Of a stretch of DNA of 64,000 bases, positions 4,735 to 38,551 are shown piece by piece. The position numbers were made by a program, and so were the translations under genes. The notes under the pieces were generated by a model. It had not been told where the DNA came from. It was given only the letters and a program-made list of their open reading frames with translations, and made no database searches. The stretch is from the NCBI GenBank assembly GCA_045656985.1, contig JAZOSH010000014.1:6326-70325 (forward strand). Direction: 5' to 3'. The stretch is from Eubacteriales bacterium (lineage in GTDB: Bacteria; Bacillota; Clostridia; Oscillospirales; CAG-272). Numbering within the stretch: position 1 is the stretch's first letter; every line of letters starts with the position of its first letter.

Positions 4735-4743
4735 GGGGAAGAT

Positions 4744-6782: not shown

Positions 6783-6794
6783 TGAAAACAATAA

Positions 6795-6828
6795 GCCCGA
6801 CAGACTTAAGTCTGTCGGGCAATTTTTT
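6795..6828. terminator. bidirectional intrinsic terminator between convergent genes
   Basis: Stem GCCCGACAGAC / GTCTGTCGGGC with loop TTAA, T-run at 6823-6828 and an A-rich 5' flank. Confidence 0.75.
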
Positions 6829-22881: not shown

Positions 22882-23516
22882 AACAAATGATAAATATCGC
22901 GCTTCCCAAGGGCAGACTTGGTGAGAAGGCGTATAAAATATTTGAGGAGGCGGGCTATGAGTGTCCGTCTATACGGGAGGAAAACAGAAAGCTTATCTTT
23001 GAAAATGAGGAAAAGGGTGTAAGATATTTCTGGGTAAAGCCTTCTGATGTAGTCATTTATGTTGAGCGAGGCGCGGCAGATATCGGTATTGCCGGCAAGG
23101 ATATAATTCTTGAGTATTCGCCAGACATATATGAGCTCTGCGATCTTGGCATTGGTAAGTGCCGAATGGCGGTGGCGGCAAAAAAGGATTTTCACGACAA
23201 TCGCGGAAAGACACTTCGTGTTGCCACAAAATTTCCGAATATAGCGCGGAGCTATTATAATTCCCAAAGCAGAGATATTGATATAATCAAGCTCAACGGA
23301 TCAATTGAGCTTGCGCCTATTCTCGGTCTTTCGGATGTTATTGTTGATATAGTAGAGACGGGAAAGACACTTCTTGAAAATGACCTTGAGCCAAAGACAG
23401 ATATCGTACCGATAAGTGCGAGGCTTGTGGCAAACAAGGTGAGCTACAAATTTAAAAACAGTGAGATATGTGAGCTTTGCGATAAGGTAAGCACGCTTGT
23501 CTCGGGCAAAAAATAA
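22878..23516 (+). CDS. hisG: ATP phosphoribosyltransferase, short form
   Basis: 212 aa. Begins ...LPKGRL, and carries the C-terminal ETGKTL motif. Confidence 0.9.
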   Translation: MKQMINIALPKGRLGEKAYKIFEEAGYECPSIREENRKLIFENEEKGVRYFWVKPSDVVIYVERGAADIGIAGKDIILEYSPDIYELCDLGIGKCRMAVAAKKDFHDNRGKTLRVATKFPNIARSYYNSQSRDIDIIKLNGSIELAPILGLSDVIVDIVETGKTLLENDLEPKTDIVPISARLVANKVSYKFKNSEICELCDKVSTLVSGKK

Positions 23517-23526
23517 GAGGAATAAA

Positions 23527-24810: not shown

Positions 24811-24811
24811 T

Positions 24812-25870
24812 ATGAGTCGTTTTTTTAACGAAAAATATGCACATCTTGAGGCATACACCCCAGGGGAACAGCCGCGGGATATGAAATATATAAAGCTAAA
24901 TACTAATGAGTCGCCCTTTCCGCCCTCAAAAGCGGTTATAGATGCCATTGATGAGGAGAGTGTAAAGGCGCTTCGTCTCTATCCAGACCCCGAGTGTCGC
25001 GAGCTGAAGGAGGCGATAGCAGAGCTTTACGGGGTGGAAAGAGAAAATGTATTTCTTTCAAACGGCTCTGACGATATTCTGAATTTCACATTTATGTCAT
25101 TTTTTGATAAAAATGGAGTGGTCTTTCCCGAGATAAGCTACGGCTTTTATAAGGTCTATGCCGAGCTTCACGGGATTGATTATAAGACGGTTCCGTTGCG
25201 TGCCGATTTCTCGGTAGCCGCAGAGGACTATATTGATGTCGGAAGAAATGTTGTTATCGCAAATCCGAACGCCCCTACGGGAATGGCCCTCTCACGAGAT
25301 GAGATAGAAAGGATCGTTGTGTCAAATGGCGATTCGCTCGTGCTCATTGACGAGGCATATGTTGATTTCGGTGGTGAGAGTGCGATAGAGCTTACTAAAA
25401 AATATGATAATCTTATTGTCTGCTGTACCTATTCAAAGTCTCGCTCGCTTGCTGGCGCAAGACTTGGCTTTGCTATTGCCAACAAGTCGCTCATTGCAGA
25501 TCTTGAGAAAATAAAATATTCCACAAATCCATATAATATCAACAAACTCACGATGGCGGCAGGCCTTGCTGCTATAAGGGATAATGGCTATTATATGGAT
25601 AATTGCCGCATTATTGAGGCAAACCGAGAGTATGCTACAAGCGAGCTTCGTGCGCTTGGATTTGATGTGCTGCCCTCAAAGGCGAATTTCATATTTGCAA
25701 GGAGCAGTAATATCGGTGGAGAGGATCTTTACCTTGCTCTTAAGGCAGAGGGGATTCTTGTAAGGCATTTCAAGACCGAAAAAATAAAGGATTACAACCG
25801 TATAACTATAGGAACAAAAGATGATATGGAGGCTCTTGTAGGTGCGGTGAAGAAAATTTTGGCGAGGTAA
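24812..25870 (+). CDS. hisC: histidinol-phosphate aminotransferase
   Basis: Class II aminotransferase with the PLP lysine in YSKSRSLAG. Confidence 0.9.
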   Translation: MSRFFNEKYAHLEAYTPGEQPRDMKYIKLNTNESPFPPSKAVIDAIDEESVKALRLYPDPECRELKEAIAELYGVERENVFLSNGSDDILNFTFMSFFDKNGVVFPEISYGFYKVYAELHGIDYKTVPLRADFSVAAEDYIDVGRNVVIANPNAPTGMALSRDEIERIVVSNGDSLVLIDEAYVDFGGESAIELTKKYDNLIVCCTYSKSRSLAGARLGFAIANKSLIADLEKIKYSTNPYNINKLTMAAGLAAIRDNGYYMDNCRIIEANREYATSELRALGFDVLPSKANFIFARSSNIGGEDLYLALKAEGILVRHFKTEKIKDYNRITIGTKDDMEALVGAVKKILAR

Positions 25871-25873
25871 AAA

Positions 25874-26464
25874 ATGAGAGAGGCTGTTATTGAACGCAAG
25901 ACTGCGGAGACAGAAATTTATATAAAACTTAATGTTGACGGTAAGGGAGAAAGCAAGATTGATACAGGCTGTGGCTTCCTTGACCATATGCTCACTCTTT
26001 TCGCAAAGCACGGCCGCTTTGACCTTGATGTCAAGTGTGTGGGCGACATATATGTTGACTATCATCACACTGTTGAGGATGTTGGAATATGCCTTGGCAC
26101 CGCATTCTCTCAGGCGCTTGGCGACTGCCGTGGAATAGTTCGTTACGGAAGCTTCCTTCTTCCCATGGATGAAGCCCTTGTTATGTGTGCCGTTGACTTT
26201 TCGGGAAGATATCATCTCTCCTACGGACTGAATATCCCGAGTCAGGTAGTGGGCAGCTTTGATACCGAGCTTGTTGAGGAGTTTATGCATGCGCTTTCAA
26301 GAAAGGCGGGGCTTTGCATACACCTTCGTCAGCTTGACGGCAGAAATTCGCACCACATAATTGAGGCGGCATTCAAGGCTCTTGCCCGTGCAATGTCGCA
26401 GGCGGTGGCAATCGATGTCCGCTTTGCAGATGAGATTCCCTCTACGAAAGGCGTGCTTGTATGA
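25874..26464 (+). CDS. hisB: imidazoleglycerol-phosphate dehydratase
   Basis: Motifs GFLDHML, DYHHTVED and NSHHIIEAAFKA. Confidence 0.95.
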   Translation: MREAVIERKTAETEIYIKLNVDGKGESKIDTGCGFLDHMLTLFAKHGRFDLDVKCVGDIYVDYHHTVEDVGICLGTAFSQALGDCRGIVRYGSFLLPMDEALVMCAVDFSGRYHLSYGLNIPSQVVGSFDTELVEEFMHALSRKAGLCIHLRQLDGRNSHHIIEAAFKALARAMSQAVAIDVRFADEIPSTKGVLV

Positions 26465-27072
26465 TAGCTGTCGTTGATTATGGAGTTGGAAATCTTTTTT
26501 CGCTTTGCAGTTCGCTCAAATATATCGGTGCGGATATCGTTGTGACATCAAGTGCTGATGACCTTCGCCGTGCCGACAGAATTCTTTTACCCGGCGTTGG
26601 CGCCTTTGCCGATGCATCTGCAAAGCTCAAGGCGACGGGGCTTGATAAGGTGCTCTGCGAGGAGGCGGCAACGGGTAAGACTCTTATGGGCATCTGCCTT
26701 GGTATGCAGATGCTTCTTGAGAAGAGTCTTGAGTTTGGAGAATATGAGGGACTTAGTCTTATTGAGGGGACGGTTAAGCCTATTTTGGATATTGTGCCAA
26801 AAGAATACAAAATACCTCATATAGGCTGGAATTCTTTGAAATTCTGCGGCGAGAAAAATCCTATTTTCAAATATGTGAACGAGGGTGAATGTGTTTATTT
26901 CGTGCATTCGTATTACGGTGCCGATTGTGGCGATGCTGTGATAGCCACTACGGAATACGGTGCTCCGCTTACTGCTGCTGTGGCAAAGGGAAATGTCTTT
27001 GGAATGCAGTTTCATCCCGAAAAAAGCGGAGAGACAGGGCTCAACATTCTTCGCGCATTTTGCGAAATATAA
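26461..27072 (+). CDS. hisH: imidazole glycerol phosphate synthase, glutaminase subunit
   Basis: Class I GATase with GICLGMQ and QFHPEKS. Confidence 0.95.
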   Translation: MIAVVDYGVGNLFSLCSSLKYIGADIVVTSSADDLRRADRILLPGVGAFADASAKLKATGLDKVLCEEAATGKTLMGICLGMQMLLEKSLEFGEYEGLSLIEGTVKPILDIVPKEYKIPHIGWNSLKFCGEKNPIFKYVNEGECVYFVHSYYGADCGDAVIATTEYGAPLTAAVAKGNVFGMQFHPEKSGETGLNILRAFCEI

Positions 27073-27090
27073 GTTTGGAGACACTTTTTT

Positions 27091-27813
27091 ATGAATATTT
27101 TTCCTGCTATTGATATAATCGGTGGAAAGGCTGTAAGGCTCGTTAAGGGCGATTACGCGCAGATGACCGTCTATAATGATTCTCCGCTTGCCGTTGCAAA
27201 GGAGTTTGAGGCAAAGGGTGCTAAATATCTGCACATTGTTGACCTTGAGGGAGCAAAGGACGGAACCACACCGAATATTGATGTTATAGCGCAAATAATA
27301 AGAGAGACCTCGCTTCTTGTTGAGGTCGGGGGCGGCATCAGAAGTGATGAAACGCTCAAAAAATATATTGACATCGGCGTGTGGAGGGCGATCCTCGGCA
27401 CGGCGGCTATCAGCGATCCTGCTTTTCTTGAGAGAGCGCTTGCTCTGTATGGCGACAAAATTGCCGTTGGAGCTGATCTTTCGGGCGGCATGGTTGCGAT
27501 AAAGGGCTGGCTTGAGGTAAGCTCGGTCAGCGGCAGAGAGTTCTTTGATAGAATGCAGAGCCTTGGTGTAAAGGGAATTATCTGCACAGATATTTCAAAG
27601 GACGGACTTCTCGGCGGCACGAATATTGAGCTTTACCGCTCGCTGTCGGAGAGCTTTACTATAGACATCACGGCATCGGGTGGAGTTTCATCGCTTGATG
27701 ACATTAAAAAGCTCAAGGAAATGGGACTTTACGGGGCAATTCTCGGCAAGGCACTTTATACGGGTGCGCTTGAGCTTTCCGAGGCTATTGCTCTTTGTGA
27801 GGAGGAAGAATGA
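27091..27813 (+). CDS. hisA: ProFAR isomerase
   Basis: Motifs FPAIDI.GGK.VRL and VGGGIRS. Confidence 0.95.
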   Translation: MNIFPAIDIIGGKAVRLVKGDYAQMTVYNDSPLAVAKEFEAKGAKYLHIVDLEGAKDGTTPNIDVIAQIIRETSLLVEVGGGIRSDETLKKYIDIGVWRAILGTAAISDPAFLERALALYGDKIAVGADLSGGMVAIKGWLEVSSVSGREFFDRMQSLGVKGIICTDISKDGLLGGTNIELYRSLSESFTIDITASGGVSSLDDIKKLKEMGLYGAILGKALYTGALELSEAIALCEEEE

Positions 27814-28568
27814 TAACAAAAAGAATTATACCCTGCCTTGATGTGAGAGACGGGCGCGTGGTGAAGGGAACTAACTTTGACGGACTTCGCGATGTTTCCT
27901 CTCCTGTTGAGCTTGCCAAATACTATTCGCAGAACGGAGCTGACGAGCTTGTTTTTTACGATATAACTGCGTCATTTGAGGGCCGGGCACTCTTTACGGA
28001 TATTCTCAAGGAGGTTGCCTCACAGATATTCATTCCTCTCACTGTTGGTGGCGGCATAAATACTATTGATGACTTTGACAGAGTGCTCAAGTGCGGTGCT
28101 GATAAGGTAAGCGTAAATTCGGGTGCTATCAGAGAGCCTATGCTTGTTTATGAGGCAGCAAGAAAATACGGTAGTCAGTGCGTGGTGCTATCGGCAGATA
28201 TAAAGCGTGTTGACGGCTGCTTCCGCGTTTTTTCAAAGGGAGGAAGAGAGAATACCGGCATGGAGGCTATTGAGTGGATACGGCGCTGTGTTGATAACGG
28301 CGCGGGTGAGGTAGTAGTCAACAGTATTGATACAGACGGAGTCAAGCATGGCTTTGATATTGAGCTTCTCGGTAAGGTATGTGAGGCGGTGAATGTTCCC
28401 GTTATAGCATCGGGAGGCGCGGGCTGTATTGATGATTTTGTTGAACTCTTTTGCAAAATCCCCGATATTGATGCGGGACTTGCGGCTTCTATCTTCCATT
28501 TTGGTGAGGTTGAAATTTCCGCTCTTAAGCAAGAGCTTCGGGCAAAAAATATAAATGTTAGAATTTAA
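27810..28568 (+). CDS. hisF: imidazole glycerol phosphate synthase, cyclase subunit
   Basis: Motifs IIPCLDV and LTVGGGI. Confidence 0.95.
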
Positions 28569-28578
28569 GAGGTCAGAT

Positions 28579-29229
28579 ATGCTTGATATAAATGAACTGA
28601 AATTTGATGAGAAGGGACTTATCCCTGCTATAGTTGTTGATGCGACCACCAAAAAGGTGCTTACACTTGCCTATATGAACAGAGAGAGCCTTGAGATAAG
28701 CATGAGAGAGGGCACAACCTGCTTCTGGTCGCGCTCGCGCAGTGAGCTTTGGAGAAAGGGAGAGACCTCGGGCAACCGTCAGCATATAGTGTCAATAGTT
28801 GCCGACTGTGACCGCGATGCGCTTACCGTAAGCGTAGTTAAGGATGGTCCTGCTTGCCATACAGGATCCGATTCATGCTTCAATGATACGGTTTTTGAGG
28901 GTGATATTGAGGGAGAGTTCTCTCTTGACTCGCTTATGAAGACCATTGAGGGTAGAAAGATAGAGAAAAAGGAGGGCTCCTATACCACATACCTTTTTGA
29001 AAAGGGAATTGACAAGATTCTCAAGAAGGTCGGAGAGGAGTCAACAGAGGTCATAATTGCAGGTAAGGCAAACGATAAGGCGGAGACTGTGTACGAAATA
29101 AGTGATCTTGTTTACCATGTTATGGTACTTATGATAGAGATGGGTATCTCACTTGAGGATATAAGAAAAGAGCTTGCCTCCCGTCATGTTATAGACCACA
29201 AGGTCAAGCAGGAGAAGATGACTAAATGA
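28579..29229 (+). CDS. hisI: bifunctional PR-AMP cyclohydrolase / PR-ATP pyrophosphatase
   Basis: Cyclohydrolase CHTGSDSCF plus a C-terminal PRA-PH domain. ATG 28579 (AAGAGG RBS) preferred over 28555. Confidence 0.9.
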
Positions 29230-30035
29230 TACCAAAATTCAATCTCCATACTCATACCACCTATTGTGACGGCAAAAATACCGCAGAGGAGATGGTGCTC
29301 TCTGCAATAGCTCTTGGCTGTGAGGGTATAGGCTTCTCGGGGCATTCATTTATCGGTGAGGATGACTTCTGGACGATGACCCGTGAGGGCACAGAAAAAT
29401 ATATAGCCGAAATAAATGCCCTCAAGAAAAAATACGAGGATAAAATAGAGATACTTCTCGGCATTGAGTATGATATTCAGTCAGAAGTAGACACAACACC
29501 GTATGATTACATCATCGGCTCGGTGCACCGCGTGCCCGTGGGCCAGTTTGATGTTGACCACACAGTGCCGATACTCAAAAAGATGGTAGATCAGTATTTC
29601 GGCGGAGACTTTTACGCACTTTGTGATGTTTATTACCGTGAGCTTTCAAGGGTCGTTGATAAGACAGACTGCGACATCGTCGGTCACTTTGACCTTGTGA
29701 CAAAATTCAATGAGGACGGCTCACTTTTTGATGAGAATGACATGAGATACCGCGATGCGGCATTTGGCTGCCTTGATGTTCTCGTAAAAAAGGATGTCAT
29801 TTTTGAGATAAATACCGGCGCTATTTCAAGAGGCTACCGAAAGGCACCGTATCCTTCAAAAATGATACTCAAAAGAATGGTTGAGCTTGGCTGTAAGATA
29901 ACACTTACTACTGATTGTCACAGTGCAGCCGATATACTTTGCGCCTATGATGAGGCACTTGAGTATGCAAGAGAATGCGGAGTGAGTGAGATGTATTTTC
30001 CAAAGAATAAGGTCTTCATTCCATACAAAATTTAA
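29226..30035 (+). CDS. hisK: histidinol-phosphatase, PHP family
   Basis: N-terminal [12 protein letters not shown] motif. Last gene of the his operon. Confidence 0.8.
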
Positions 30036-30041
30036 GAACTT

Positions 30042-30085
30042 CCGTTTTTGGCAAATCAGGTCAAAAACGGGGGTTCTTTCTTTTT
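30042..30085 (+). terminator. intrinsic terminator of the his operon
   Basis: Stem CCGTTTTTG / CAAAAACGG followed by a T-rich tract. Confidence 0.65.
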
Positions 30086-30151: not shown

Positions 30152-30169
30152 TGTGACAATAATTTCACA
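30152..30169 (+). promoter_or_regulatory. inverted repeat TGTGA-N8-TCACA just upstream of the hyd-module promoter; candidate regulator site
   Basis: Read directly: TGTGACAATAATTTCACA. The half-sites resemble Rex/CRP-type sites, but the spacer is N8 rather than N6. Confidence 0.35.
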
Positions 30170-30176
30170 AAATTTA

Positions 30177-30205
30177 TGGACAATAAAGGCGAGTTGTAGT
30201 ATAAT
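30177..30205 (+). promoter_or_regulatory. SigA-type promoter (TGGACA-N17-TATAAT) for the hydrogenase regulatory module
   Basis: TGGACA at 30177-30182, 17-nt spacer, TATAAT at 30200-30205. Confidence 0.5.
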
Positions 30206-30271: not shown

Positions 30272-30628
30272 ATGAAAATAAGGGAAATTGCAGAGCTGCT
30301 TGATGCAAAAGTGCTTTGTGGCGAGGAGCTTATTGAGGGCGAGGTACACTCTGCCTGCGGCTGTGATATGATGAGCGATGTGCTTGCCTTTGTAAAGGAG
30401 CAGGCTGTGCTTATCACGGGCCTTTGTAATCCTCAGGTCGTAAGAACTGCAGAGATGATGGATATGCGCTGTATCGTTTTTGTAAGAGGCAAGATGCCTC
30501 AAAAGGAGGTAATAGCGCTTGCAGAGCAGTGCGGTATAGCAATTCTTGCTACAAGCGAGAGGATGTATGTTGCTTGCGGAAAGCTTTACGAGAAGGGTCT
30601 CTCGGGTGGGAGCGTGCTAGATGAGTGA
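30272..30628 (+). CDS. DRTGG-domain protein, 118 aa
   Basis: Small single-domain protein paralogous to the ORF at 32334. The family call comes from overall pattern and context. Confidence 0.6.
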   Translation: MKIREIAELLDAKVLCGEELIEGEVHSACGCDMMSDVLAFVKEQAVLITGLCNPQVVRTAEMMDMRCIVFVRGKMPQKEVIALAEQCGIAILATSERMYVACGKLYEKGLSGGSVLDE

Positions 30629-31043
30629 GAGTGTAAATTTTCATTTTGAAATAGACGGTGATAACTTTACATCTGCGGGAGAGGCATCTGTTCAGGCAAA
30701 GAAGATGCTTCGTCAGATGGGTTTTTCAGCTGACACCATACGCAGGGTCTCGGTCGCAATGTATGAGGGCGAGATAAATATGGTAATTCACGCAAACGGT
30801 GGAACGGCTGATATCAATGTTTTCTGCGATAAGATAGAGATAATCCTTGAAGATAAGGGACCCGGTATTCCCGATATTGCGCTTGCTATGCAGGAGGGCT
30901 ATTCAACTGCACCTGATAATATCCGTTCACTCGGCTTCGGAGCAGGTATGGGACTTCCCAATATGAAGCGCTACACAGATTCATTTGAAATAGAAACAGA
31001 GGTAGGAGTCGGAACGACTATTAAGATGACCGTAAATGTCTGA
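30621..31043 (+). CDS. RsbW/SpoIIAB-type anti-sigma-like Ser-kinase ATPase (HATPase_c), 140 aa
   Basis: G1/G2 boxes DKGPGIPD and GFGAGMGLPNM. 8-nt overlap with the upstream gene. Confidence 0.7.
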   Translation: MSESVNFHFEIDGDNFTSAGEASVQAKKMLRQMGFSADTIRRVSVAMYEGEINMVIHANGGTADINVFCDKIEIILEDKGPGIPDIALAMQEGYSTAPDNIRSLGFGAGMGLPNMKRYTDSFEIETEVGVGTTIKMTVNV

Positions 31044-31066
31044 TTCTTGCCGGATAAGAGGTGGAT

Positions 31067-32320
31067 ATGGCACAATATCTTCATTCGGTTACACTTGACA
31101 TTTCCAAATGTAAGGGATGTACGAATTGCATAAAGCGCTGTCCTACCGAGGCGATAAGAGTCCGTGACGGACACGCGGTGATAAAAGAAGAAAAATGCAT
31201 AGATTGCGGTGAGTGCATAAGACTTTGTCCGTATAAGGCAAAAAAGGCGATATACGAAAAGCTTGAGGATTTTGATGATTATAAGTTCAAAATAGCTCTG
31301 CCTGCGCCTGCGCTTTACGGTCAGTTTGACGAGGTTGACGAGGTTGACGAGTTGCTTGCGGCACTTCTTGCGTGTGGCTTTGATGCTGTGTTTGAGGTTT
31401 CTCGTGCTGCTGAAATTATTACCGAGTTTACAAGAAGGTATATGCGTCGCGATGACTTACCAAAGCCGATAATAAGCTCTGCATGCCCCGCAATTGTAAG
31501 ACTTATAGGACTTCGTTTTTCCTGTCTTGCAGACAATCTTTTGCCGATAATGCCTCCCATTGAGTATGCCGCAAGGCTTGCAAGACGCGAGGTGCTTGAG
31601 GCTCATCCCGAGCTTTGCGATGATGACATATGCGTGCTTTTTATCACGCCTTGTCCCGCAAAGATAAGCTATATTAAAAATCCTATCGGTGTTGAGAAAT
31701 CTGCCGTAAACGGCGCACTTCCCATCAGCGATATGTATTTCAGAATCCGTTCAAAGCGCAAAGAGATAAAGAATCCCCCCTTGCTTTCAAAGACTGGAAT
31801 TATTGGTCTTAACTGGGCGGGAACAGGCGGCGAGGCTACCTCACTTCTGTCCGATAAATATCTTGCGGCAGACGGAATTGAAAACTGTATAAAGGTGCTT
31901 GATGAGATTGAAAACGGAACCATCCGTGATCTTGATTTTGTTGAGCTGAATGCCTGCAACGGAGGCTGCGTGGGGGGAACTCTCAATGTGGAAAATCCGT
32001 ATATTGCCAAGGCAAGACTTCGTTCACTCCGCAAATTCCTGCCTATCTCAAGAAATAAGGTAGAGGAGAATATCTCTCTTGAAGAGGCAATGACAGAGGT
32101 CAGCTTCTTTGAGGAGAATGTAAGACTTTCTGCGGAGGAAAGAATGCGCGCGATAGAGAGAATGTCACGCACAGAACAGATCTACAAGGAGCTTCCGCAT
32201 CTTGATTGCGGCTCGTGCGGCGCGCCGAACTGCCACGCTCTTGCGGAAGATATAATAAATTGCGACGCTTGTGAGGGTGATTGCCTCATCAGGCTCAGAG
32301 ATGAGCATTATAAGTCGTAA
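31067..32320 (+). CDS. [FeFe]-hydrogenase-like protein, putative sensory type
   Basis: Two CxxCxxCxxxCP ferredoxin motifs. H-cluster-like motifs SSACPA, TPCPAK and ELNACNGGCVGG. C-terminal Cys cluster CGSCGAPNC...CDACEGDC. Confidence 0.8.
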   Translation: MAQYLHSVTLDISKCKGCTNCIKRCPTEAIRVRDGHAVIKEEKCIDCGECIRLCPYKAKKAIYEKLEDFDDYKFKIALPAPALYGQFDEVDEVDELLAALLACGFDAVFEVSRAAEIITEFTRRYMRRDDLPKPIISSACPAIVRLIGLRFSCLADNLLPIMPPIEYAARLARREVLEAHPELCDDDICVLFITPCPAKISYIKNPIGVEKSAVNGALPISDMYFRIRSKRKEIKNPPLLSKTGIIGLNWAGTGGEATSLLSDKYLAADGIENCIKVLDEIENGTIRDLDFVELNACNGGCVGGTLNVENPYIAKARLRSLRKFLPISRNKVEENISLEEAMTEVSFFEENVRLSAEERMRAIERMSRTEQIYKELPHLDCGSCGAPNCHALAEDIINCDACEGDCLIRLRDEHYKS

Positions 32321-32333
32321 AAAGGAGGTAACT

Positions 32334-32660
32334 ATGAAGGTAGGTGAGCTCTGCTCCGCACTTGGAGCAAAGGCAATAGCTATGCCGTCGCCCGAAAGAG
32401 AGATCAAGGGGGCGTATGTAGGAGACCTTCTCAGCTGGGTAATGGGGAGAGCAGACCTTGATAACGCATGGGTGACGATAATGTCAAATGTGAATGTTAT
32501 CGCGGTGGCATCACTTGCCGGTGTCGCCTGTGTTATATTTGCCGAGGGAGTGAGTCCAGATGCAGATGCGCTGAAGCGCGCCGAGCTTGAGGGAATAAAT
32601 CTTCTTTCGGTAGATGGCGCGGCATATGAGACCTGCGTTGCGCTCTCGGAGCTTATATGA
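32334..32660 (+). CDS. DRTGG-domain protein, 108 aa
   Basis: Paralog of 30272-30628. ATG 32334 follows an AAAGGAGG RBS; the track start at 32271 lies inside the upstream gene. Confidence 0.55.
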   Translation: MKVGELCSALGAKAIAMPSPEREIKGAYVGDLLSWVMGRADLDNAWVTIMSNVNVIAVASLAGVACVIFAEGVSPDADALKRAELEGINLLSVDGAAYETCVALSELI

Positions 32661-33394
32661 GCAGATATTATTACGATCTGCACATTCATTCCTGCCTCTC
32701 ACCCTGTGCCGATAATGATATGACGCCAAACAATATAGTGGGAATGGCAACACTTAACGGACTGTCACTGCTTGCACTGACAGACCATAACACATGCCGA
32801 AATTGTCCTGCCTTCTTTGAAGCAGCCAAAAGACAGGGAATAGTGCCTGTTGCAGGAATGGAGCTGACAACTGCTGAGGATATACATCTTGTTTGCCTCT
32901 TCAGTGAGCTTGACGACGCTATGGCGTTTTCAGATGAGATTGCAAGGCATATTATGCAGGTGAAAAATCGCCCCGAGATATTCGGTGACCAGCTTATTCT
33001 TGACGGCGAGGACAATGTTATCGGCGAGGAAGATATCTTGCTTATATCGGCGACCGACCTTTGGGTAAACGATGCGATAGCACTTGCGCGTTCATTCGGC
33101 GCGCATGTAAGACCTGCGCATATAGATAGAGAATCAAACGGAATGATAGCCATACTCGGTGATGTGCCGAGTGAATACGGCTTTAATTTCGTTGAACTCA
33201 ATGATAAGGAAAACAGAAAAGTCTATTTTGAGAATTACCCTTCTCTTGAAGGTAAAGAGGTTATTGTCTCTTCTGATGCTCACCATCTATGGGAGATAAG
33301 CGAGGCGGAGAATTACCTTGAGATAGATGATGAGCCGTATTCCTCGGCACTCGTCAGAAAAAGGCTTTTTGAGCTGCTTGAGGGCAGCATTTAA
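32657..33394 (+). CDS. PHP-domain phosphoesterase
   Basis: YYDLHIHSCLSPCAD and ALTDHNT PHP metal motifs. 4-nt overlap with the upstream gene. Confidence 0.75.
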   Translation: MSRYYYDLHIHSCLSPCADNDMTPNNIVGMATLNGLSLLALTDHNTCRNCPAFFEAAKRQGIVPVAGMELTTAEDIHLVCLFSELDDAMAFSDEIARHIMQVKNRPEIFGDQLILDGEDNVIGEEDILLISATDLWVNDAIALARSFGAHVRPAHIDRESNGMIAILGDVPSEYGFNFVELNDKENRKVYFENYPSLEGKEVIVSSDAHHLWEISEAENYLEIDDEPYSSALVRKRLFELLEGSI

Positions 33395-33449
33395 GATGTA
33401 TTTATTTAAAAAATAAATAAAATAAAAAAAACGGAGGAAATTTTTCATT

Positions 33450-33944
33450 ATGAAAAAGAATTTGACTACGGTAATGTTTCGTGGTACAAAGGCTCAAGAG
33501 GAAGAGCTCAATGCTGTAATTGAGAGCCTTCGCGACACCCCCGGTGCTCTTATGCCTATTTTGCAGAAGGCACAGGACATTTACGGATATCTTCCTATTG
33601 AGGTGCAGAGAATGATCGCACTTAAGCTTGGCGTGTCCGTTGAAGAGGTATATGGCGTGTCTACCTTCTACTCACAGTTCGCACTCAACCCCAAGGGAGA
33701 GGTTGCAATTGCTGTATGTATGGGAACGGCTTGCTATGTAAAGGGAAGCGGCGAGCTTCTTGACAGAATCTGTGAGGTTCTCGGCATGGAGGTTGGCGCT
33801 ACATCGCCCGATGGTAAGTTCTCTATTGAGGCAACGAGATGTATCGGTGCTTGCGGACTCGCTCCCGTTCTTACTATCAATAACGAGGTTTACGGCAGAC
33901 TTCAGAAGTCTGATATTGACGGTATTCTGGCTAAATACAGATAA
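33450..33944 (+). CDS. hydC: NuoE-like [2Fe-2S] subunit of bifurcating hydrogenase
   Basis: NuoE/HydC cluster motif: CMGTAC followed by the distal Cys pair ...CIGACGLAP. Confidence 0.9.
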   Translation: MKKNLTTVMFRGTKAQEEELNAVIESLRDTPGALMPILQKAQDIYGYLPIEVQRMIALKLGVSVEEVYGVSTFYSQFALNPKGEVAIAVCMGTACYVKGSGELLDRICEVLGMEVGATSPDGKFSIEATRCIGACGLAPVLTINNEVYGRLQKSDIDGILAKYR

Positions 33945-33949
33945 TCGTT

Positions 33950-34492
33950 ATGAAAGAGCTTTCGCTTCATATACTTGATGTCGCAAAAAATTCCGTTAAG
34001 GCGGGCGCAAGTCTTATTGAAATATCAATAGAGCGCACAAGCGATGGAATGATGACAGTAAGAATTTCCGATAATGGCTGCGGTATGACCGAAGAGGTCG
34101 TACGCCGTGTCACAGATCCCTTTTATACAACGAGAACTACCAGAAAGGTAGGCCTTGGACTCCCTCTTTGGAGGCTTGCGGCTGAACAGACGGGAGGCAG
34201 AATGACGATAACTTCGTCTGTGGAAGAAGGCAAAAGTGGCACAGTGGTTGAGGCGATCTTCAATACGAACAGCATTGACTGTATGCCTATGGGAGACATA
34301 ATCTCAACGGTATGCATACTTGTGGCGGGCAGTCCTGAAAAGGATTTTATCTTTACGGATAAGTCGGAAGAAAGAGCGATATCTCTTGATACACGCGAGA
34401 TGAAGGCGGTGCTTGGAGAGGGAATATCCCTTGCAGAGCCCGAGATACAGACATGGCTTGCGGAGTATCTTCGTGAACAGTATAATAATTAA
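33950..34492 (+). CDS. stand-alone histidine-kinase-like ATPase (HATPase_c), 180 aa
   Basis: N box HILDVAKNSVKAGA, G1 DNGCGM and G2 GLGLP. No sensor, DHp or TM region. Confidence 0.7.
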   Translation: MKELSLHILDVAKNSVKAGASLIEISIERTSDGMMTVRISDNGCGMTEEVVRRVTDPFYTTRTTRKVGLGLPLWRLAAEQTGGRMTITSSVEEGKSGTVVEAIFNTNSIDCMPMGDIISTVCILVAGSPEKDFIFTDKSEERAISLDTREMKAVLGEGISLAEPEIQTWLAEYLREQYNN

Positions 34493-34517: not shown

Positions 34518-34886
34518 ATGAAAAGTTTAGCTGAACTTGCTGCTATCAAACAAAAGATGCAGGACAAGGTAGTTATTCGTGAGGGCGTTGCAGGCGTAAG
34601 AGTAGTTGTTGGTATGGCTACCTGCGGAATTGCGGCAGGCGCGCGTCCCGTTCTTAATGCATTCGTTGCGGGTGTAACAGAGAACGGCCTTGGCGATAAG
34701 GTAACAGTAACACAGACAGGCTGTATCGGCATCTGCCAGTATGAGCCCGTAGTTGAGATCTTCGAGGAGGGCAAGGATAAGGTAACTTATGTAAAGCTCA
34801 CCGCAGAGAAGGCACAGGAGATAGTAAAAGAGCATCTCGTAGGCGGCAAGATCGTTGAAAAGTACACGATCGGCGCTAACAAATAA
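34518..34886 (+). CDS. thioredoxin-like [2Fe-2S] ferredoxin
   Basis: 122 aa with Cys at MATCG and GCIGICQYEP. Occupies the position of the small Fd subunit seen in HydABC(D) operons. Confidence 0.75.
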   Translation: MKSLAELAAIKQKMQDKVVIREGVAGVRVVVGMATCGIAAGARPVLNAFVAGVTENGLGDKVTVTQTGCIGICQYEPVVEIFEEGKDKVTYVKLTAEKAQEIVKEHLVGGKIVEKYTIGANK

Positions 34887-34919: not shown

Positions 34920-36737
34920 ATGGTAAGAACACATGTACTTATCTGTGGCGGTACAGGCTGTACCTCTTCTGGAAGCATGAAGATCAGTGATGCGCTTACA
35001 GCAGAGATTGCCGCAAAGGGACTTGAGGAAGAGGTTAAGGTAGTCGTAACTGGTTGCTTTGGTCTTTGCGCACTTGGTCCTATTATGATAGTTTACCCCG
35101 AGGGAACATTCTACAGCCAGGTTAGTGTAGAGGACGTTCCTGAGATCGTTGAGGAGCACTTCCTCAAGGGTCGTCCCGTAGAGCGTCTTGTTTACCATGA
35201 GGTAAATGACGAGGATAAGCATCACGCAACATCGCTCTCCGAGACAACCTTCTACAAGAAGCAGAAGAGAGTTGCTCTTCGTAACTGCGGAGTTATCAAC
35301 CCCGAGAATATTGACGAGTATATCGCAATGGATGGTTATCAGGCACTTGGTAAGGTACTTACCGAGATGACTCCCGATGATGTTATCCAGACAATCCTTG
35401 ATTCCGGTCTTCGCGGACGCGGAGGCGGCGGATTCCCCACAGGTCTTAAGTGGAAGTTCGCTTCGGGCAACAGAGGCAATGTTGTAAAGTACATCGGTTG
35501 TAACGCAGACGAGGGTGACCCCGGTGCGTTCATGGACCGTTCTATTCTTGAGGGTGACCCCCACGCAGTTCTCGAGGCTATGGCTATTGCCGGATATGCT
35601 ATCGGTGCTGAAGAGGGTTACATATATGTTCGTGCAGAGTATCCTATCGCTATTCACCGCCTTGAGATCGCTATCAATCAGGCTCGTGAGTACGGACTTC
35701 TCGGCAAGAATATTTTCAATACAGGATTTAACTTCGATATTCACCTCCGCTTTGGTGCGGGCGCGTTCGTTTGCGGTGAGGAGACAGCTCTTATGACCTC
35801 TATCGAGGGTCACAGAGGTGAGCCCCGTCCCCGTCCTCCTTTCCCTGCAGTAAAGGGACTTTTCGGACAGCCCACAATCCTTAATAATGTAGAGACCTAT
35901 GCTAACATTCCCCAGATCATTCTCAAAGGCGTAGACTGGTTCAAGTCTATGGGTACAGAGAAGTCTAAGGGAACTAAGGTATTCGCTCTCGGCGGTAAGA
36001 TCACAAACACAGGTCTTGTTGAGGTTCCTATGGGAACAACACTCCGCGAGGTAATCGAGGAGATCGGTGGCGGTATTCCTAACGGAAAGACCTTCAAGGC
36101 AGCTCAGACCGGTGGTCCTTCCGGTGGATGTATACCCGCATCTCTTATTGATACTCCTATTGATTACGATAACCTTATCGCTATCGGCTCTATGATGGGT
36201 TCGGGCGGACTTATCGTAATGGATGAGGATACTTGTATGGTTGACCTTGCTCGCTTCTTCCTCGACTTCACAGTTGATGAGTCCTGCGGTAAGTGTACAC
36301 CTTGCCGTGTTGGTACAAAGAGACTTCTTGAGATACTTGACAAGATCATCGCAGGAAACGGCGAGATGGAAGACCTTGACAAGCTTGAGGAGCTCTCCAA
36401 CTACATCAAGTCTGCATCTCTCTGCGGTCTCGGACAGACTGCTCCTAACCCCGTTCTCTCGACACTCCGTTACTTCAGAGATGAGTATGTTGCTCACATC
36501 GTTGACAAGAAGTGTCCTGCGGGCGTATGTAAGAGTCTGCTCCAGTTCAAGATCGATCTTGATAAGTGTATCGGTTGCGGAATGTGCGCTAAGCAGTGTC
36601 CCGCAGACGCTATCACAAGAACCGATTATGTCGCTCCCGGCCACAAGCTCGCTTCCTTCACGATCGACACTGCAAAGTGCGTAAAGTGCGGCGCTTGTAT
36701 GGATAAGTGTAAGCCTCATGCGATCTACAAAGACTAA
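34920..36737 (+). CDS. hydB: NuoF-like FMN/NAD(H)-binding subunit of bifurcating hydrogenase
   Basis: N-terminal 2Fe-2S domain, GRGGGGFPTG FMN/NADH site, CGKCTPCR N3-type cluster, and two C-terminal CxxCxxCxxxCP motifs. Confidence 0.93.
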   Translation: MVRTHVLICGGTGCTSSGSMKISDALTAEIAAKGLEEEVKVVVTGCFGLCALGPIMIVYPEGTFYSQVSVEDVPEIVEEHFLKGRPVERLVYHEVNDEDKHHATSLSETTFYKKQKRVALRNCGVINPENIDEYIAMDGYQALGKVLTEMTPDDVIQTILDSGLRGRGGGGFPTGLKWKFASGNRGNVVKYIGCNADEGDPGAFMDRSILEGDPHAVLEAMAIAGYAIGAEEGYIYVRAEYPIAIHRLEIAINQAREYGLLGKNIFNTGFNFDIHLRFGAGAFVCGEETALMTSIEGHRGEPRPRPPFPAVKGLFGQPTILNNVETYANIPQIILKGVDWFKSMGTEKSKGTKVFALGGKITNTGLVEVPMGTTLREVIEEIGGGIPNGKTFKAAQTGGPSGGCIPASLIDTPIDYDNLIAIGSMMGSGGLIVMDEDTCMVDLARFFLDFTVDESCGKCTPCRVGTKRLLEILDKIIAGNGEMEDLDKLEELSNYIKSASLCGLGQTAPNPVLSTLRYFRDEYVAHIVDKKCPAGVCKSLLQFKIDLDKCIGCGMCAKQCPADAITRTDYVAPGHKLASFTIDTAKCVKCGACMDKCKPHAIYKD

Positions 36738-36749
36738 GGAAAGGTAAGA

Positions 36750-38498
36750 GTGCAAATGGAAACTGTAAATATTAAGATAAACGGTAGAGAATATGCCGTT
36801 CCTCAGGGTTCGACTGTTCTCGAGGCAGCCAGAATTGCCAATATAGAGATTCCCACACTCTGCTATCTCAAGGATATCAACGAGATCGGCGCTTGCCGTC
36901 TTTGTCTCGTTGAGGTGTCCGAGGGCGGCAGACCCTTCAGAATGGTAACCGCTTGCGTTTACCCTGTAACTGAGGGAATGGTAGTTCTCACAAACACACC
37001 CAAGATCAATAAGTCGAGAAAGACCAACCTTGAGCTTCTTCTCTCGAATCACGACAGAAAGTGTCTCTCCTGCGTACGCAGCACCACCTGTGAGCTCCAG
37101 AAGCTCTGCAACGAGTACGGTGTTGACGAGGAAGCATTCGCAGGAACAAAGAACCACTATGAGATAGATGATAAGACACCTATCATCAGAGATAACAATA
37201 AGTGTATCCTTTGCCGCCGTTGTGTTGCTGCATGTTCTAAGGTTCAGGGCATCGGCGTTATCGGCGCAAACGACAGAGGATTTGACACACACATCGCAAG
37301 CGCATTTGAGATCCCGCTCGCAGAGACCTCTTGTATCAACTGTGGTCAGTGTATCGTTGCTTGTCCTGTTGGCGCTCTTTATGAGAGAGACGACACAGAC
37401 AAGATCCTCGATGCTATTGCTGACCCCGCAAAGAAGGTATATATCTGTACAGCTCCTTCTGTAAGAGCACAGATCGGCGAGTGCTTCGGCTACGAGCCCG
37501 GCACCGACTGCGAGGGCAAGATGGTTGCAGCTCTCAAGGCTCTCGGTTTTGACGGCGTTTACGATATGAACCTTACTGCTGACCTTACCATTATGGAAGA
37601 GGCAACAGAGTTCCTTGGTAGAGTTAAGAACGGTGGTGTTCTTCCCATGATCACCTCCTGCTCGCCCGGATGGATCAAGTACTGTGAGCACTACTATCCT
37701 GAGTTCACAGAGAACCTCTCCACTTGTAAGTCTCCTCAGCAGATGTTTGGTGCTGTTGTTAAGACCTACTTCGCAGAGAAGAACGGTATCGATCCTAAGG
37801 ATATCGTATTCGTTTCTGCTATTCCTTGTACAGCTAAGAAGTTCGAGGTAGGAAGACCCGGTCAGTCGGCAGCAGGCGTTCCCGATGTTGATATAGCGGT
37901 TACAACCCGTGAGCTCGGCAGACTCATCGAGAAGGCTGGTATCGATTTCAAGAAGCTCGGTGATGAGCAGTTCGATATTCCTTTCGATATCGGTTCTTCC
38001 GCAGGTGCTATCTTCGGTGCTACAGGTGGCGTTATGGAGGCAGCTCTCCGTACAGCAGCAGAGGTTATCGAGGGCAAGCCTCTTGAGACCCTTGAGTTCA
38101 ATGAGGTTCGTGGTGTTGAGGGCGTTAAGCTCGCATCCTACAAGCTCGGTGGCATTAACCTTAATGTTGCAGTAGCTTCGGGTACTGCAAATGCAAAGAA
38201 GGTGCTTGACGCAGTTAAGGCAGGCGAACTCGATGTTCAGTTCATCGAGATTATGGCTTGTCCCGGCGGTTGCGTAAACGGTGGTGGACAGCCCATTCAG
38301 CCCGCAAGCGTTCGCGAGACAATCGACCTTCGTGCGGTTCGTGCAGCTGTTCTTTATAACGACGATAAGCACGCAGATATCCGTAAGTCTCACGAGAACT
38401 CTGCAGTTAAGAAGCTCTATGACGAGTATTTCGGCGAGCCCAACAGCCACAAGGCACACGAGGTTCTCCATACTCATTACATCAAGCGTGGACTTTAA
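36750..38498 (+). CDS. hydA: [FeFe] hydrogenase catalytic subunit
   Basis: N-terminal 2Fe-2S and 4Fe-4S domains. H-cluster motifs TSCSPGW, IPCTAKKFE and EIMACPGGCVNGGGQP. Start is GTG 36750 or ATG 36756. Confidence 0.93.
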   Translation: MQMETVNIKINGREYAVPQGSTVLEAARIANIEIPTLCYLKDINEIGACRLCLVEVSEGGRPFRMVTACVYPVTEGMVVLTNTPKINKSRKTNLELLLSNHDRKCLSCVRSTTCELQKLCNEYGVDEEAFAGTKNHYEIDDKTPIIRDNNKCILCRRCVAACSKVQGIGVIGANDRGFDTHIASAFEIPLAETSCINCGQCIVACPVGALYERDDTDKILDAIADPAKKVYICTAPSVRAQIGECFGYEPGTDCEGKMVAALKALGFDGVYDMNLTADLTIMEEATEFLGRVKNGGVLPMITSCSPGWIKYCEHYYPEFTENLSTCKSPQQMFGAVVKTYFAEKNGIDPKDIVFVSAIPCTAKKFEVGRPGQSAAGVPDVDIAVTTRELGRLIEKAGIDFKKLGDEQFDIPFDIGSSAGAIFGATGGVMEAALRTAAEVIEGKPLETLEFNEVRGVEGVKLASYKLGGINLNVAVASGTANAKKVLDAVKAGELDVQFIEIMACPGGCVNGGGQPIQPASVRETIDLRAVRAAVLYNDDKHADIRKSHENSAVKKLYDEYFGEPNSHKAHEVLHTHYIKRGL

Positions 38499-38508
38499 TT
38501 GATATAAC

Positions 38509-38541
38509 AAAAACCCCTTGCCTCTCGGCAAGGGGTTTTTG
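38509..38541. terminator. bidirectional intrinsic terminator
   Basis: Stem CCCCTTGCC / GGCAAGGGG with loop TCTC, flanked by an A-run and a T-run. Confidence 0.85.
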
Positions 38542-38551
38542 TTATGAATTT

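Follow-up and report, generated by a model that had tools for sequence, protein, structure and literature searches.

A conserved cassette of two DRTGG proteins, a SpoIIAB-type kinase-like ATPase, a putative group D sensory [FeFe]-hydrogenase and a PHP phosphoesterase opens a hyd operon in an Oscillospirales bacterium

Five co-directional genes on the + strand, at positions 30272-33394 of the window (the whole stretch of 64,000 nucleotides analysed here), encode DRTGG1, a kinase-like ATPase, HydS, DRTGG2 and a PHP-family phosphoesterase, and they open a ten-gene operon (Table 1). We regard this cassette as the regulatory front half of the hyd operon, made up of a HydS sensor, a kinase arm and a reset arm, a reading for which we judge the chances to be even. 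Since HydS has the group D features and the cassette is both abundant and rigid, it belongs to a published class whose mechanism is unsolved. A preliminary description of this DNA had also called the mechanism not worked out, in agreement with the literature, where as of 2026 the proteins with which group D HydS interacts still await identification (PMC13104023).

Table 1. Features of the ten-gene hyd operon and its boundaries (positions in the window)
Feature	Position	Strand	Basis or remark
Terminator-like hairpin	30034..30078	+	19-bp stem and T run; ends the his operon and bounds the unit on its left
Sigma-70-type promoter, TGGACA-17-TATAAT	30177..30205	+	11/12 match
DRTGG1, stand-alone DRTGG-domain protein, 118 aa	30272..30628	+	Pfam DRTGG
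SpoIIAB/RsbW-type GHKL Ser-kinase-like ATPase, 140 aa	30621..31043	+	HATPase_c_2
HydS, putative sensory group D (M2e) [FeFe]-hydrogenase, 417 aa	31067..32320	+	Pfam domains and cysteine motifs
DRTGG2, DRTGG1 paralogue, 108 aa	32334..32660	+	Pfam DRTGG; hhalign
PHP-family trinuclear-metal phosphoesterase, 245 aa	32657..33394	+	Pfam PHP
Spacer, 55 nt, 85% A+T, SD site for hydC	33395..33449		No terminator found in the spacer
HydC / NuoE-like 2Fe-2S subunit	33450..33944	+	PF01257 E 2e-48
Second, orphan HATPase_c protein (histidine-kinase CA-type), 180 aa, without DHp domain	33950..34492	+	HATPase_c E 4e-16
Small thioredoxin-like 2Fe-2S ferredoxin, HydD-like	34518..34886	+	Domain search
HydB / NuoF-like flavoprotein subunit	34920..36737	+	TIGR01959 E 1e-152
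HydA, NADH-dependent group A [FeFe]-hydrogenase catalytic subunit	36750..38498	+	NF040763 851.7 bits, cut-off 765
Strong terminator	38503..38546	+	20-bp stem and T run; closes the ten-gene operon

The operon is preceded by the his genes (hisZ, hisG, hisD, hisC, then hisH, hisA, hisF, hisIE and hisJ) and followed by three minus-strand genes whose products are assigned to DUF4358, to GDSL lipase or to no Pfam family. Its promoter retains in close relatives the form T[AG]GACA...TA(T/G)AGTATAAT with an A-rich tract upstream and, as no conserved operator was found upstream of the operon, autoregulation is not indicated. The DRTGG1 and kinase genes overlap by 8 nt and those of DRTGG2 and PHP by 4 nt, with gaps of 23 nt between kinase and HydS (17 nt if a GTG start is taken for HydS) and of 13 nt between HydS and DRTGG2. 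For HydS, we followed the homologues in choosing ATG 31067 over the GTG at 31061 of the automatic ORF call; for DRTGG2, homologues and a GGAGG site back ATG 32334 over the automatically called GTG 32271. The ORF coordinates thus confirm the tight packing given in the preliminary description (overlaps of 8 and 4 nt, gaps of 13-23 nt), while Pfam and conserved motifs agree with its parts list of two DRTGG proteins, a SpoIIAB-like kinase, an H2-sensor-type hydrogenase and a PHP protein. Its remark that the cassette has no gene for a STAS protein, sigma factor, response regulator or HTH protein holds as well, since Pfam detects neither STAS nor sigma, receiver or HTH domains in the five products. 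No PP2C (SpoIIE-type) or sigma domain is encoded by the ten operon genes, the upstream his genes or the three downstream genes. HisKA is absent from both HATPase proteins and no Response_reg domain was found (Pfam), which argues against a two-component system. HydABC had also been placed directly behind a 55-nt AT-rich spacer; the spacer is there, but the real order is hydC (nuoE), the orphan HATPase_c gene, the 2Fe-2S ferredoxin gene, hydB (nuoF) and hydA. The orphan protein matches the CA domain of KinB in the PDB (E 2.5e-9), and in relatives its gene accompanies those of NuoE and NuoF. By gene content, the joint presence of hydA, hydB (NuoF-like) and hydC (NuoE-like) predicts an electron-bifurcating HydABC of group A3/A6.

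By all sequence criteria of PMC8163306, HydS is a putative sensor of group D (M2e). Pfam recognises two Fer4 domains, Fe_hyd_lg_C (3.2e-27) and FeS (PF04060), and all cluster cysteines (8+4+4) are conserved at 99% or more: C15, C18, C21, C25 and C44, C47, C50, C54 of the N-terminal clusters at 100% in 81 sequences, C140, C196, C297 and C301 of the H-cluster at 99-100%, and C381, C384, C389 and C406 of the C-terminal Cx2Cx4Cx16C at 100%. Besides a NACNGGC motif, HydS displays Ala in L1 (SSACP) where the proton-relay cysteine C299 of CpI stands and Thr in L2 (TPCPAK) at the place of CpI M353, and its proton relay is predicted to be disabled. No PAS domain was matched at E<=0.01 (Pfam) and only 11 residues follow the last cluster cysteine; as its fourth cluster is not followed by a C-terminal PAS domain, HydS was ruled out as a member of group C (M2f). 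The protein resembles TamHydS, the group D enzyme of Thermoanaerobacter mathranii, in its two N-terminal [4Fe-4S] motifs, H-domain, C-terminal Cx2Cx4Cx16C and lack of PAS, as well as in the replaced proton-relay cysteine and the hydroxyl residue in place of CpI Met353. TamHydS catalyses a reversible but slow H+/H2 interconversion and behaves like a sensor (Land et al. 2020, PMC8163306). The two genes are also alike in lying upstream of a HydABC of the bifurcating type and adjoining a histidine-kinase-like ATPase. This ATPase and an AraC-family regulator are the only neighbours mentioned for TamHydS (PMC8163306; PMC13104023), whereas the present locus has no AraC gene and HydS is regularly accompanied by PHP and two DRTGG proteins. 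A full-text literature search returned no relevant paper linking DRTGG with a hydrogenase.

The kinase falls into HATPase_c_2 (Pfam E 1.7e-10, 41.4 bits for a cut-off of 27.4). It scores E 4.8e-17 against the NCBIfam SpoIIAB model, under the model cut-off, and also stays under the RsbW equivalog cut-off; the nearest solved structures in the PDB are SpoIIAB (E 5e-8) and RsbW (E 7e-4). Its N-box (E49/N53), G1 (D78xGxG) and G2 (GFGAGMG) are 100% conserved in 80 sequences, and the protein is predicted to be competent for ATP binding. The flanking small proteins belong to Pfam DRTGG, DRTGG1 clearly (E 6.5e-9, 36 bits for a cut-off of 25.2) and DRTGG2 barely (E 1e-5, 25.7 bits for the same cut-off), and are paralogues (hhalign probability 99%, E 4.6e-18). 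The AF2 model of DRTGG1 (pLDDT 86.9) matched AF1212 (PDB 2IOJ) with a TM of 0.81, 3L31/3L2B with 0.7 and 1KO7 with 0.66 in Foldseek. The model thus resembles the N-domain of HPrK/P (PDB 1KO7, 1KNX) and also LpxD and a pseudomurein (Mur-type) peptide ligase, again in their N-terminal domains. The predicted fold is of the DRTGG / HPrK-N / LpxD-N type and not STAS, a fold absent from the top 50 Foldseek matches of the model. Ser35 and Thr49, invariant in DRTGG1, align with 'AMS' and 'TGG', generic motifs that unrelated DRTGG proteins carry as well, AF1212 among them, and give no evidence of a phospho-acceptor.

The PHP protein (Pfam PHP E 2.6e-11) has an intact metal site, with the superfamily ligand set HxH, (D)H, E, H, H, DxH complete and its residues H9, H11, D43/H44, E69, H77, H155, D207 and H209 invariant in 73 sequences. 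C13, C17 and C80 are conserved across relatives, and close homologues bear the JGI label 'PHP family Zn ribbon phosphoesterase'. The nearest folds of the predicted structure are Bad1165, RNase AM, Cv1693 and EndoQ, at low TM-scores (0.35-0.49) for a model of moderate quality with a poor C-terminal third; sequence and fold together place it nearest to the Cv1693 pAp phosphatase, RNase AM, EndoQ and the PHP domains of Pol III. The PHP-type protein phosphatases CpsB/YwqE appeared neither in sequence searches, even at E<=10, nor in the top 50 fold matches of this moderate-quality model, and a closer kinship to them than to other PHP branches was rejected on these grounds. No PHP enzyme is known to act as a Ser/Thr protein phosphatase. 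Two roles assigned in the preliminary description are consequently weakened: that of the DRTGG proteins as phospho-substrates, by a fold other than STAS and the generic nature of Ser35 and Thr49, and that of PHP as the phosphatase of the module, by nearest relatives whose substrates are nucleotides or nucleic acids.

About 100 independent loci share this gene order, more than chance would give, and the cassette is very frequent among Clostridia from guts and digesters. The conserved neighbourhood that had been expected was indeed found in our gene-neighbourhood survey: DRTGG1 and the kinase lie upstream of HydS in all 74 testable relatives, DRTGG2 and PHP downstream of it in 72 of 76, and the order is kept in a second sample at 44-52% identity. 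In 22 of 65 relatives the cassette is embedded in the hyd operon. The overlaps recur too, with 8 or 4 nt between DRTGG1 and kinase in 39 loci and 4 nt between DRTGG2 and PHP in 38. Median identities to the proteins of this locus are 68% for DRTGG1, 71% for the kinase and 58% for HydS, and DRTGG1 and the kinase appear, from sequence comparison, to evolve as slowly as the catalytic subunits. Two loci (L039 and L040) keep DRTGG1-kinase-HydS and miss both DRTGG2 and PHP. In Thermovenabulum, a natural DRTGG1::HATPase_c_2 fusion with a 23-residue charged linker is found on at least nine contigs and in one NCBI record, in an otherwise identical operon. This fusion supports a direct DRTGG1-kinase partnership and fits equally well if DRTGG1 is to the kinase what the DRTGG-like N-domain is to HPrK/P, a regulatory domain; together, fusion and joint loss newly favour a signalling complex. 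Translational coupling links the fusion gene to a rex gene that has a perfect Rex box, and in L039 an AraC gene abuts the cassette, as reported for T. mathranii. The absence of a DNA-binding output, claimed for the module as such, is therefore only local: no regulator is present in cis in this window, yet rex or AraC adjoins the cassette in other lineages.

While the order of the genes, their domains, the intact catalytic motifs, the conservation figures, the fusion and the co-loss are observed, we infer all signalling steps, from the binding partners and the phosphorylated protein to the substrate of PHP and the output. HydS, a PAS-less hydrogenase expected to bind an H-cluster and to combine slow H2 turnover with high H2 affinity, would report H2 or the redox state through a conformational change, by analogy with TamHydS. 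The putative DRTGG1-kinase complex would receive this signal and spend ATP to phosphorylate a Ser or Thr, most likely in a DRTGG paralogue. DRTGG2 and PHP, encoded by overlapping genes that are usually gained or lost together, would reverse or antagonise the kinase arm. Here the output would not be in cis and may act directly, at the post-translational level, on the co-translated NuoE/NuoF/HydA enzyme or through a trans regulator of the Rex or AraC type, as carried beside the cassette in relatives.

In the same cassette the roles could be distributed otherwise: DRTGG1 would serve the kinase as a regulatory or adaptor subunit, and the substrate would instead be HydS, a subunit of Hyd or a regulator in trans, for example Rex; DRTGG2 would likewise target or regulate PHP. 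This option, which we consider possible but somewhat unlikely, draws on the natural fusion with its charged linker, the match of the DRTGG1 model to the HPrK/P N-domain (1KO7 and 1KNX), the pairing of every DRTGG gene with one enzyme gene by overlap, the generic Ser and Thr motifs and the coupling of rex to the fusion gene. However, it points to no particular substrate, substrate-kinase fusions are possible too, and the order of small protein, kinase and third gene mimics spoIIAA-spoIIAB-sigF, in which antagonist, kinase and target follow each other.

Two further accounts depart from a protein phosphorelay led by a sensor. In a nucleotide-based signalling or housekeeping system, PHP would hydrolyse a nucleotide or short nucleic acid (pAp-like, an oligoribonucleotide or a second messenger), ligand binding would fall to the DRTGG proteins and the GHKL protein would be an ATP-dependent switch and not a protein kinase. 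The proximity of PHP to the Cv1693 pAp phosphatase, RNase AM, Bad1165, EndoQ and polymerase PHP domains, the JGI label and the resemblance of the DRTGG1 model to the N-terminal domains of LpxD and the Mur-type ligase, which bind nucleotide sugars, are in line with it. We nevertheless find it improbable, as the fold matches of PHP have low TM-scores and the C-terminal third of its model is poor, the cassette has no nucleotide cyclase or synthase, and in CBS-pyrophosphatases the nucleotide is bound by the CBS domains and not by DRTGG. HydS might otherwise be not, or not only, a sensor, and join the NuoE/NuoF flavoprotein module as a slow hydrogenase for catalysis or electron input, in an enzyme that the small proteins would tune or assemble. 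Nine distant loci carry the cassette with NuoE, HATPase, (Fdx) and NuoF but without hydA; the M2e protein is their sole H-cluster protein, which does not fit a pure role as sensor of an adjacent HydABC. NuoE also lies upstream of the cassette in the 22 relatives with the embedded arrangement, and TamHydS does interconvert H+ and H2 reversibly, though slowly (PMC8163306). Against this stand cassettes without any NuoE/NuoF (L063, L066, L069, L077 and L080), the predicted loss of the proton relay, and kinase and phosphoesterase partners that are not among known hydrogenase assembly factors. The M2e protein also lacks the NuoG-like N-terminal domains (Pfam) by which HydA docks to HydB, and we give this account little credence.

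The cassette has parallels in known systems. Group C (M2f) proteins, i.e. TmHydS, R. albus HydS and Thermoanaerobacterium HfsB in hfsABCD, are putative H2 sensors that share the N- and C-terminal clusters of our HydS. Their genes accompany those of a kinase or phosphatase and of fermentation hydrogenases, and genetics showed a regulatory phenotype for hfsB. They differ by a C-terminal PAS, missing here, and by pairing with a Ser/Thr kinase and the serine phosphatase HfsC (taken as PP2C-type), in place of which we find PHP. Partner-switching modules (SpoIIAA-SpoIIAB-SigF/SpoIIE, RsbV-RsbW-SigB/RsbU and the sigma-less SiaABCD) share the small HATPase_c_2 kinase of SpoIIAB/RsbW type, the overlapping genes for a small protein and then the kinase, and an opposing phosphoesterase gene, but our cassette has no STAS antagonist, PP2C phosphatase or sigma factor and its candidate switch proteins have the DRTGG fold. 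The latter share fold and 'AMS' and 'TGG' motifs with the DRTGG domains of CBS-pyrophosphatases, AF1212 and the N-domain of HPr kinase/phosphorylase; unlike them, they are free-standing proteins of about 110 aa, present as two paralogues each paired with an enzyme gene, and the family 'GDR' is replaced by LCN or MSN. Finally, HoxBC-HoxJ-HoxA, the [NiFe] regulatory hydrogenase system of Cupriavidus necator, likewise uses a crippled hydrogenase to sense H2 and control a kinase, but its proteins are unrelated and HoxJ is a true histidine kinase with the response regulator HoxA, whereas neither DHp nor receiver is found here.

To conclude, the most far-reaching form of our proposal is a partner switch free of STAS and PP2C, in which a group D H2-sensing hydrogenase would control a SpoIIAB-type kinase that writes a phospho-switch of free-standing DRTGG proteins and PHP would erase it as a Ser/Thr protein phosphatase, with direct post-translational control of the electron-bifurcating hydrogenase as output. 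Taken with all these details it is unlikely; if true, it would be the first signalling role for a DRTGG domain and the first Ser/Thr-phosphatase role for a PHP protein. Besides, the cassette names concrete candidates for the partners of the HydS sensor.

Comparison of the relatives of HydS, the PAS-less group D [FeFe]-hydrogenase paralogue (M2e protein) of the window, defines a conserved quartet of companion proteins (DRTGG1, a SpoIIAB/RsbW-type kinase, DRTGG2 and PHP) with a two-arm structure. In the window, the cassette formed by these five genes heads a series of ten co-directional genes on the + strand, bounded by the terminator of the his operon and a second one after hydA. The gene order and tight packing given in the preliminary description (overlaps of 8 and 4 nt, gaps of 13-23 nt) proved correct by ORF coordinates and by Pfam and NCBIfam, which confirmed the domain of each cassette protein; the two gaps measure 23 and 13 nt. 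The same searches found no STAS, sigma, receiver, HisKA or HTH domain, in line with the claim that the module lacks a STAS partner, sigma factor, response regulator or HTH protein. DRTGG2 is shorter than its mechanical ORF, which begins at 32271, and the mechanical GTG start of HydS at 31061 is probably not the true one, since homologues start at ATG. The AT-rich spacer between PHP and hydC (55 nt, 85% A+T, without terminator) was described correctly, but what follows is not a bare HydABC: this part comprises hydC (nuoE-like), the genes of a second HATPase_c protein (an orphan) and of a small 2Fe-2S ferredoxin, then hydB (nuoF-like) and hydA, whose product scores above the NCBIfam cut-off for the NADH-dependent group A6 hydrogenase.

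Features of the operon and its surroundings in the window, with median identity of relatives to each window protein (59 loci)
Feature	Position	Strand	Remark	Median identity
his operon (hisZ, hisG, hisD, hisC, then hisH, hisA, hisF, hisIE, HisJ)	21787-30035	+		
HisJ-type PHP histidinol phosphatase	29226-30035	+	last his-operon gene	
Terminator	30034-30078		closes his operon	
Imperfect palindrome TGTGACAATAATTTCACA (TGTGA-N8-TCACA)	30152-30169		just 5' of -35 hexamer	
Promoter TGGACA-17-TATAAT	30177-30205		near-consensus, ahead of the ten genes	
DRTGG1	30272-30628	+		68%
HATPase_c_2 protein (kinase), 140 aa	30621-31043	+	8-nt overlap with DRTGG1	71%
HydS, 417 aa	31067-32320	+		58%
DRTGG2	32334-32660	+		49%
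PHP	32657-33394	+	4-nt overlap with DRTGG2	53%
HydC				68%
Orphan histidine-kinase-type ATPase, 180 aa	33950-34492	+	between hydC and small ferredoxin	
Stop-free frame, 1334 codons	34527-38531	-	antisense to small ferredoxin gene, hydB and hydA	
HydA				67%
Terminator	38503-38546		strong, after hydA	

Some other features of this region deserve mention. The orphan ATPase has no DHp/HisKA, a conserved C-terminal extension of ~70 aa and no obvious SD site, and it occurs alongside NuoE/NuoF in nearly all relatives, also where hydA is missing. The long antisense frame is a mechanical ORF whose translation is of low complexity; most likely it merely mirrors codon usage on the sense strand. The PHP gene that ends the his operon was rejected as a module member, as it encodes HisJ and is parted from the cassette by the terminator; two unrelated PHP proteins are therefore found within 3.5 kb. 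An Rfam search of the window gave no match, and no meaningful repeats are present.

None of the component classes in the window is new. Judged by its sequence, HydS shows precisely the traits that Land et al. [quoted passage not shown] Indeed, across 81 sequences, the eight Cys of the two N-terminal [4Fe-4S] motifs, the H-cluster Cys (C140, C196, C297 and C301) and the C-terminal Cx2Cx4Cx16C are essentially invariant. The L1 motif reads SSACP and thus places an Ala at the proton-relay Cys (C299) of CpI, while L2 (TPCPAK) places a Thr at CpI M353. The last Cys lies only 11 residues from the C-terminal end, and the absence of a PAS domain sets HydS outside group C. No group C or D structure was found in the PDB by sequence search. 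HydDB holds a 'histidine kinase-linked' sensory class (C1), and group D was termed functionally undefined in a 2024 survey. A 2026 study of TamHydS (PMC13104023) ruled out that the C-terminal cluster changes its redox state, and stated that the proteins with which TamHydS interacts have yet to be identified, which agrees with the earlier remark that the mechanism has not been worked out. A full-text literature search on the combination of DRTGG and hydrogenase returned no relevant paper.

The cassette is both abundant and conserved. At E<=1e-10, the database clusters of HydS relatives number more than 8000, the best 120 of which are all at least 73% identical and bear the names of Clostridia or Ruminococcaceae MAGs; a scan with one genome per species found a relative in at least 594 genomes. 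For the 80 best loci (49-80% identity), the ten window proteins were scored against all reading frames. DRTGG1 and the kinase lie directly 5' of HydS at 74 of the 74 loci with enough sequence, DRTGG2 and PHP directly 3' at 72 of 76, and hydB no more than 4.5 kb downstream at 43 of 50. The layout of the window, with nuoE after PHP, occurs at 43 loci. At 22 others (L022, L023, L041, L043-L046, L050-L060, L062, L065, L070 and L075), nuoE/hydC stands ahead of DRTGG1, so that the five-gene cassette is embedded in the hyd operon. Flanks vary, the upstream gene being polA in one relative versus the his operon in the window, which indicates that the ten genes move as a unit; cassettes standing alone without hyd genes are found at L063, L066, L069, L077 and L080. 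In a second, more distant sample seeded with the Thermovenabulum HydS (digester and environmental metagenomes, 44-52% identity), the five-gene order was identical every time, and the neighbourhood is thus conserved as anticipated. The median identities show DRTGG1 and the kinase to be as constrained as the catalytic subunits HydC and HydA, with HydS, DRTGG2 and PHP less so.

Within the cassette, each DRTGG gene is coupled by overlap to one enzyme gene: DRTGG1 and the kinase overlap by 8 or 4 nt at 39 loci, and DRTGG2 and PHP by 4 nt at 38. By hhalign (99%, E 4.6e-18), DRTGG1 and DRTGG2 are paralogues of each other. Two loci (L039 and L040) keep DRTGG1-kinase-HydS while both DRTGG2 and PHP are missing, and a third (L048) keeps DRTGG2 without PHP. 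A DRTGG1 profile search of 1.8 billion representative proteins matched 1843 clusters; among the 150 listed, almost all are free-standing proteins of ~105-130 aa and one is a genuine fusion. This protein (P0482, 270 aa) joins DRTGG1 to HATPase_c_2 through a charged linker of 23 residues; at 90% it belongs to a cluster of three, one of them an NCBI Thermovenabulum record. The cluster occurs on at least nine contigs, and the operon around the fusion is otherwise identical. The other long matches (with ArgJ, Peptidase_M3, ABC_tran or domain-less tails) were judged to be chimeric or frameshifted gene calls, because their DRTGG portion breaks off near residue 85. The fusion speaks for a direct partnership between DRTGG1 and the kinase, and fits DRTGG1 as a substrate and as a regulatory domain equally well.

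How do these parts work together? The preliminary description proposed a sensor, a kinase and a phosphoesterase, with the DRTGG proteins as phospho-substrates, PHP as their phosphatase and a post-translational output. The parts list is sound. Besides the Cys set of HydS, the kinase has intact ATP motifs in all of 80 sequences (N-box E49 and N53, G1 D78-x-G-x-G, G2 GFGAGMG), with SpoIIAB (E 5e-8) and RsbW as closest solved relatives, and PHP retains all canonical metal ligands (H9, H11, D43/H44, E69, H77, H155, D207 and H209). By sequence and fold, however, the closest relatives of PHP are the pAp phosphatase Cv1693, RNase AM, Bad1165, EndoQ and polymerase PHP domains, the fold matches reaching a TM of only 0.35-0.49 with a poorly modelled C-terminal third. 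PHP-type protein tyrosine phosphatases and HisJ are absent from these closest matches, which lend no support to a CpsB/YwqE-like protein phosphatase. Conserved Cys occur beside the metal site of PHP (C13 95%, C17 100%, C80 93%) and in DRTGG1 (C29 91%, C67 100%, C102 97%), and could be redox-sensitive or metal-binding sites.

The DRTGG fold is genuine in the AF2 model of DRTGG1 (pLDDT 86.9), whose best match is AF1212 (2IOJ) at a TM of 0.81, followed by the DRTGG domain of CBS-pyrophosphatase and the N-domain of HPr kinase/phosphorylase; N-domains of LpxD and of the pseudomurein (Mur-type) peptide ligase also match. A cryptic STAS fold was ruled out, STAS being absent from the top 50 Foldseek hits. 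Model confidence is low in one segment only, residues 31-44, which is also the most conserved motif (D-M-M-S-D-V-L). The alignment to AF1212 equates its Ser and the later T-G with the family-wide 'AMS' and 'TGG(DR)' motifs, so the invariance of Ser35 and Thr49 is uninformative on phosphorylation and these residues were dismissed as specific phospho-sites. A substrate role of DRTGG and a phosphatase role of PHP remain hypothetical, and some indications speak against them. The full model, with a DRTGG phospho-switch, a PHP protein phosphatase and a post-translational output, seems unlikely to us, while we are evenly divided on the general signalling reading of the cassette.

The module was described as having no DNA-binding output. 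The window indeed has no regulator gene near the cassette (the his operon lies upstream, lipoprotein and membrane genes downstream), but this lack of a DNA-binding partner is lineage-specific. In 73 upstream regions of relatives, a promoter and an A-rich tract are the sole common elements; no conserved operator, dyad or Rex box was found there, and dyad and k-mer counts recovered only the promoter. At L001-L021, L025, L026, L028 and L042, a strong promoter of near-identical sequence (TAGACAtttt...TAtAGTATAAT) is conserved together with an A-rich UP-like tract; the 5' UTRs behind it differ in length (30 to 110 nt) and have no element in common. Rex control of the window operon was ruled out: phmmer found no rex in the 64-kb window or at the 80 best loci, and no Rex-box match lies upstream of the operon. 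The palindrome ahead of the promoter was rejected as a Rex or CRP-type site owing to its wrong spacing and lack of conservation in the 73 regions. In Thermovenabulum (L084/L085, 7372-8813), rex and the fusion gene share 4 nt, a perfect Rex box (TTGTTAAAAATTTAACAA, L084:7269-7286) stands ~100 nt 5' of rex, and hydA is followed by an rnf operon. At L039, an AraC-family HTH gene (4563-5378, -) abuts and converges on the HydS gene, and an AraC-family gene near T. mathranii HydS has been reported in the literature. L040 carries an ECF-sigma/zf-HC2 fusion gene (6300-7580, +) ~800 nt downstream. The output may run either through a regulator acting in trans or through direct control of the enzyme that is translated with the cassette.

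The role of HydS itself may also extend beyond sensing. Nine loci of the distant sample (L088, L089, L091, L093, L094, L096, L098, L099 and L101) carry the complete cassette together with NuoE, HATPase, (Fdx) and NuoF, and end at nuoF without hydA; ~4.5-6 kb downstream of the M2e gene, nuoF is followed by a CAP-domain gene, or by DUF3189 and then rnf genes (rnfCD). M2e is the sole H-cluster protein encoded there with NuoE/NuoF, which keeps alive the alternative that it exchanges electrons with this flavoprotein module instead of serving purely to sense for an adjacent HydABC.

To conclude, the comparison adds to the group D family a partner quartet, its two arms, one natural fusion, and Rex, AraC and hydA-less variants. 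Clostridia of the gut, the rumen and digesters abound in PAS-less group D [FeFe]-hydrogenases, with a presumed role in sensing H2 and directing fermentation towards H2 and acetate or reduced products, and with relevance to rumen methane, gut gas and biofuel yields; their signalling route is an acknowledged gap. The hydA-less variants question whether 'sensor' is their full role, and the near-invariant quartet, the DRTGG1-kinase fusion and the Rex- and AraC-linked variants provide a small set of candidate partners and outputs that can be tested.
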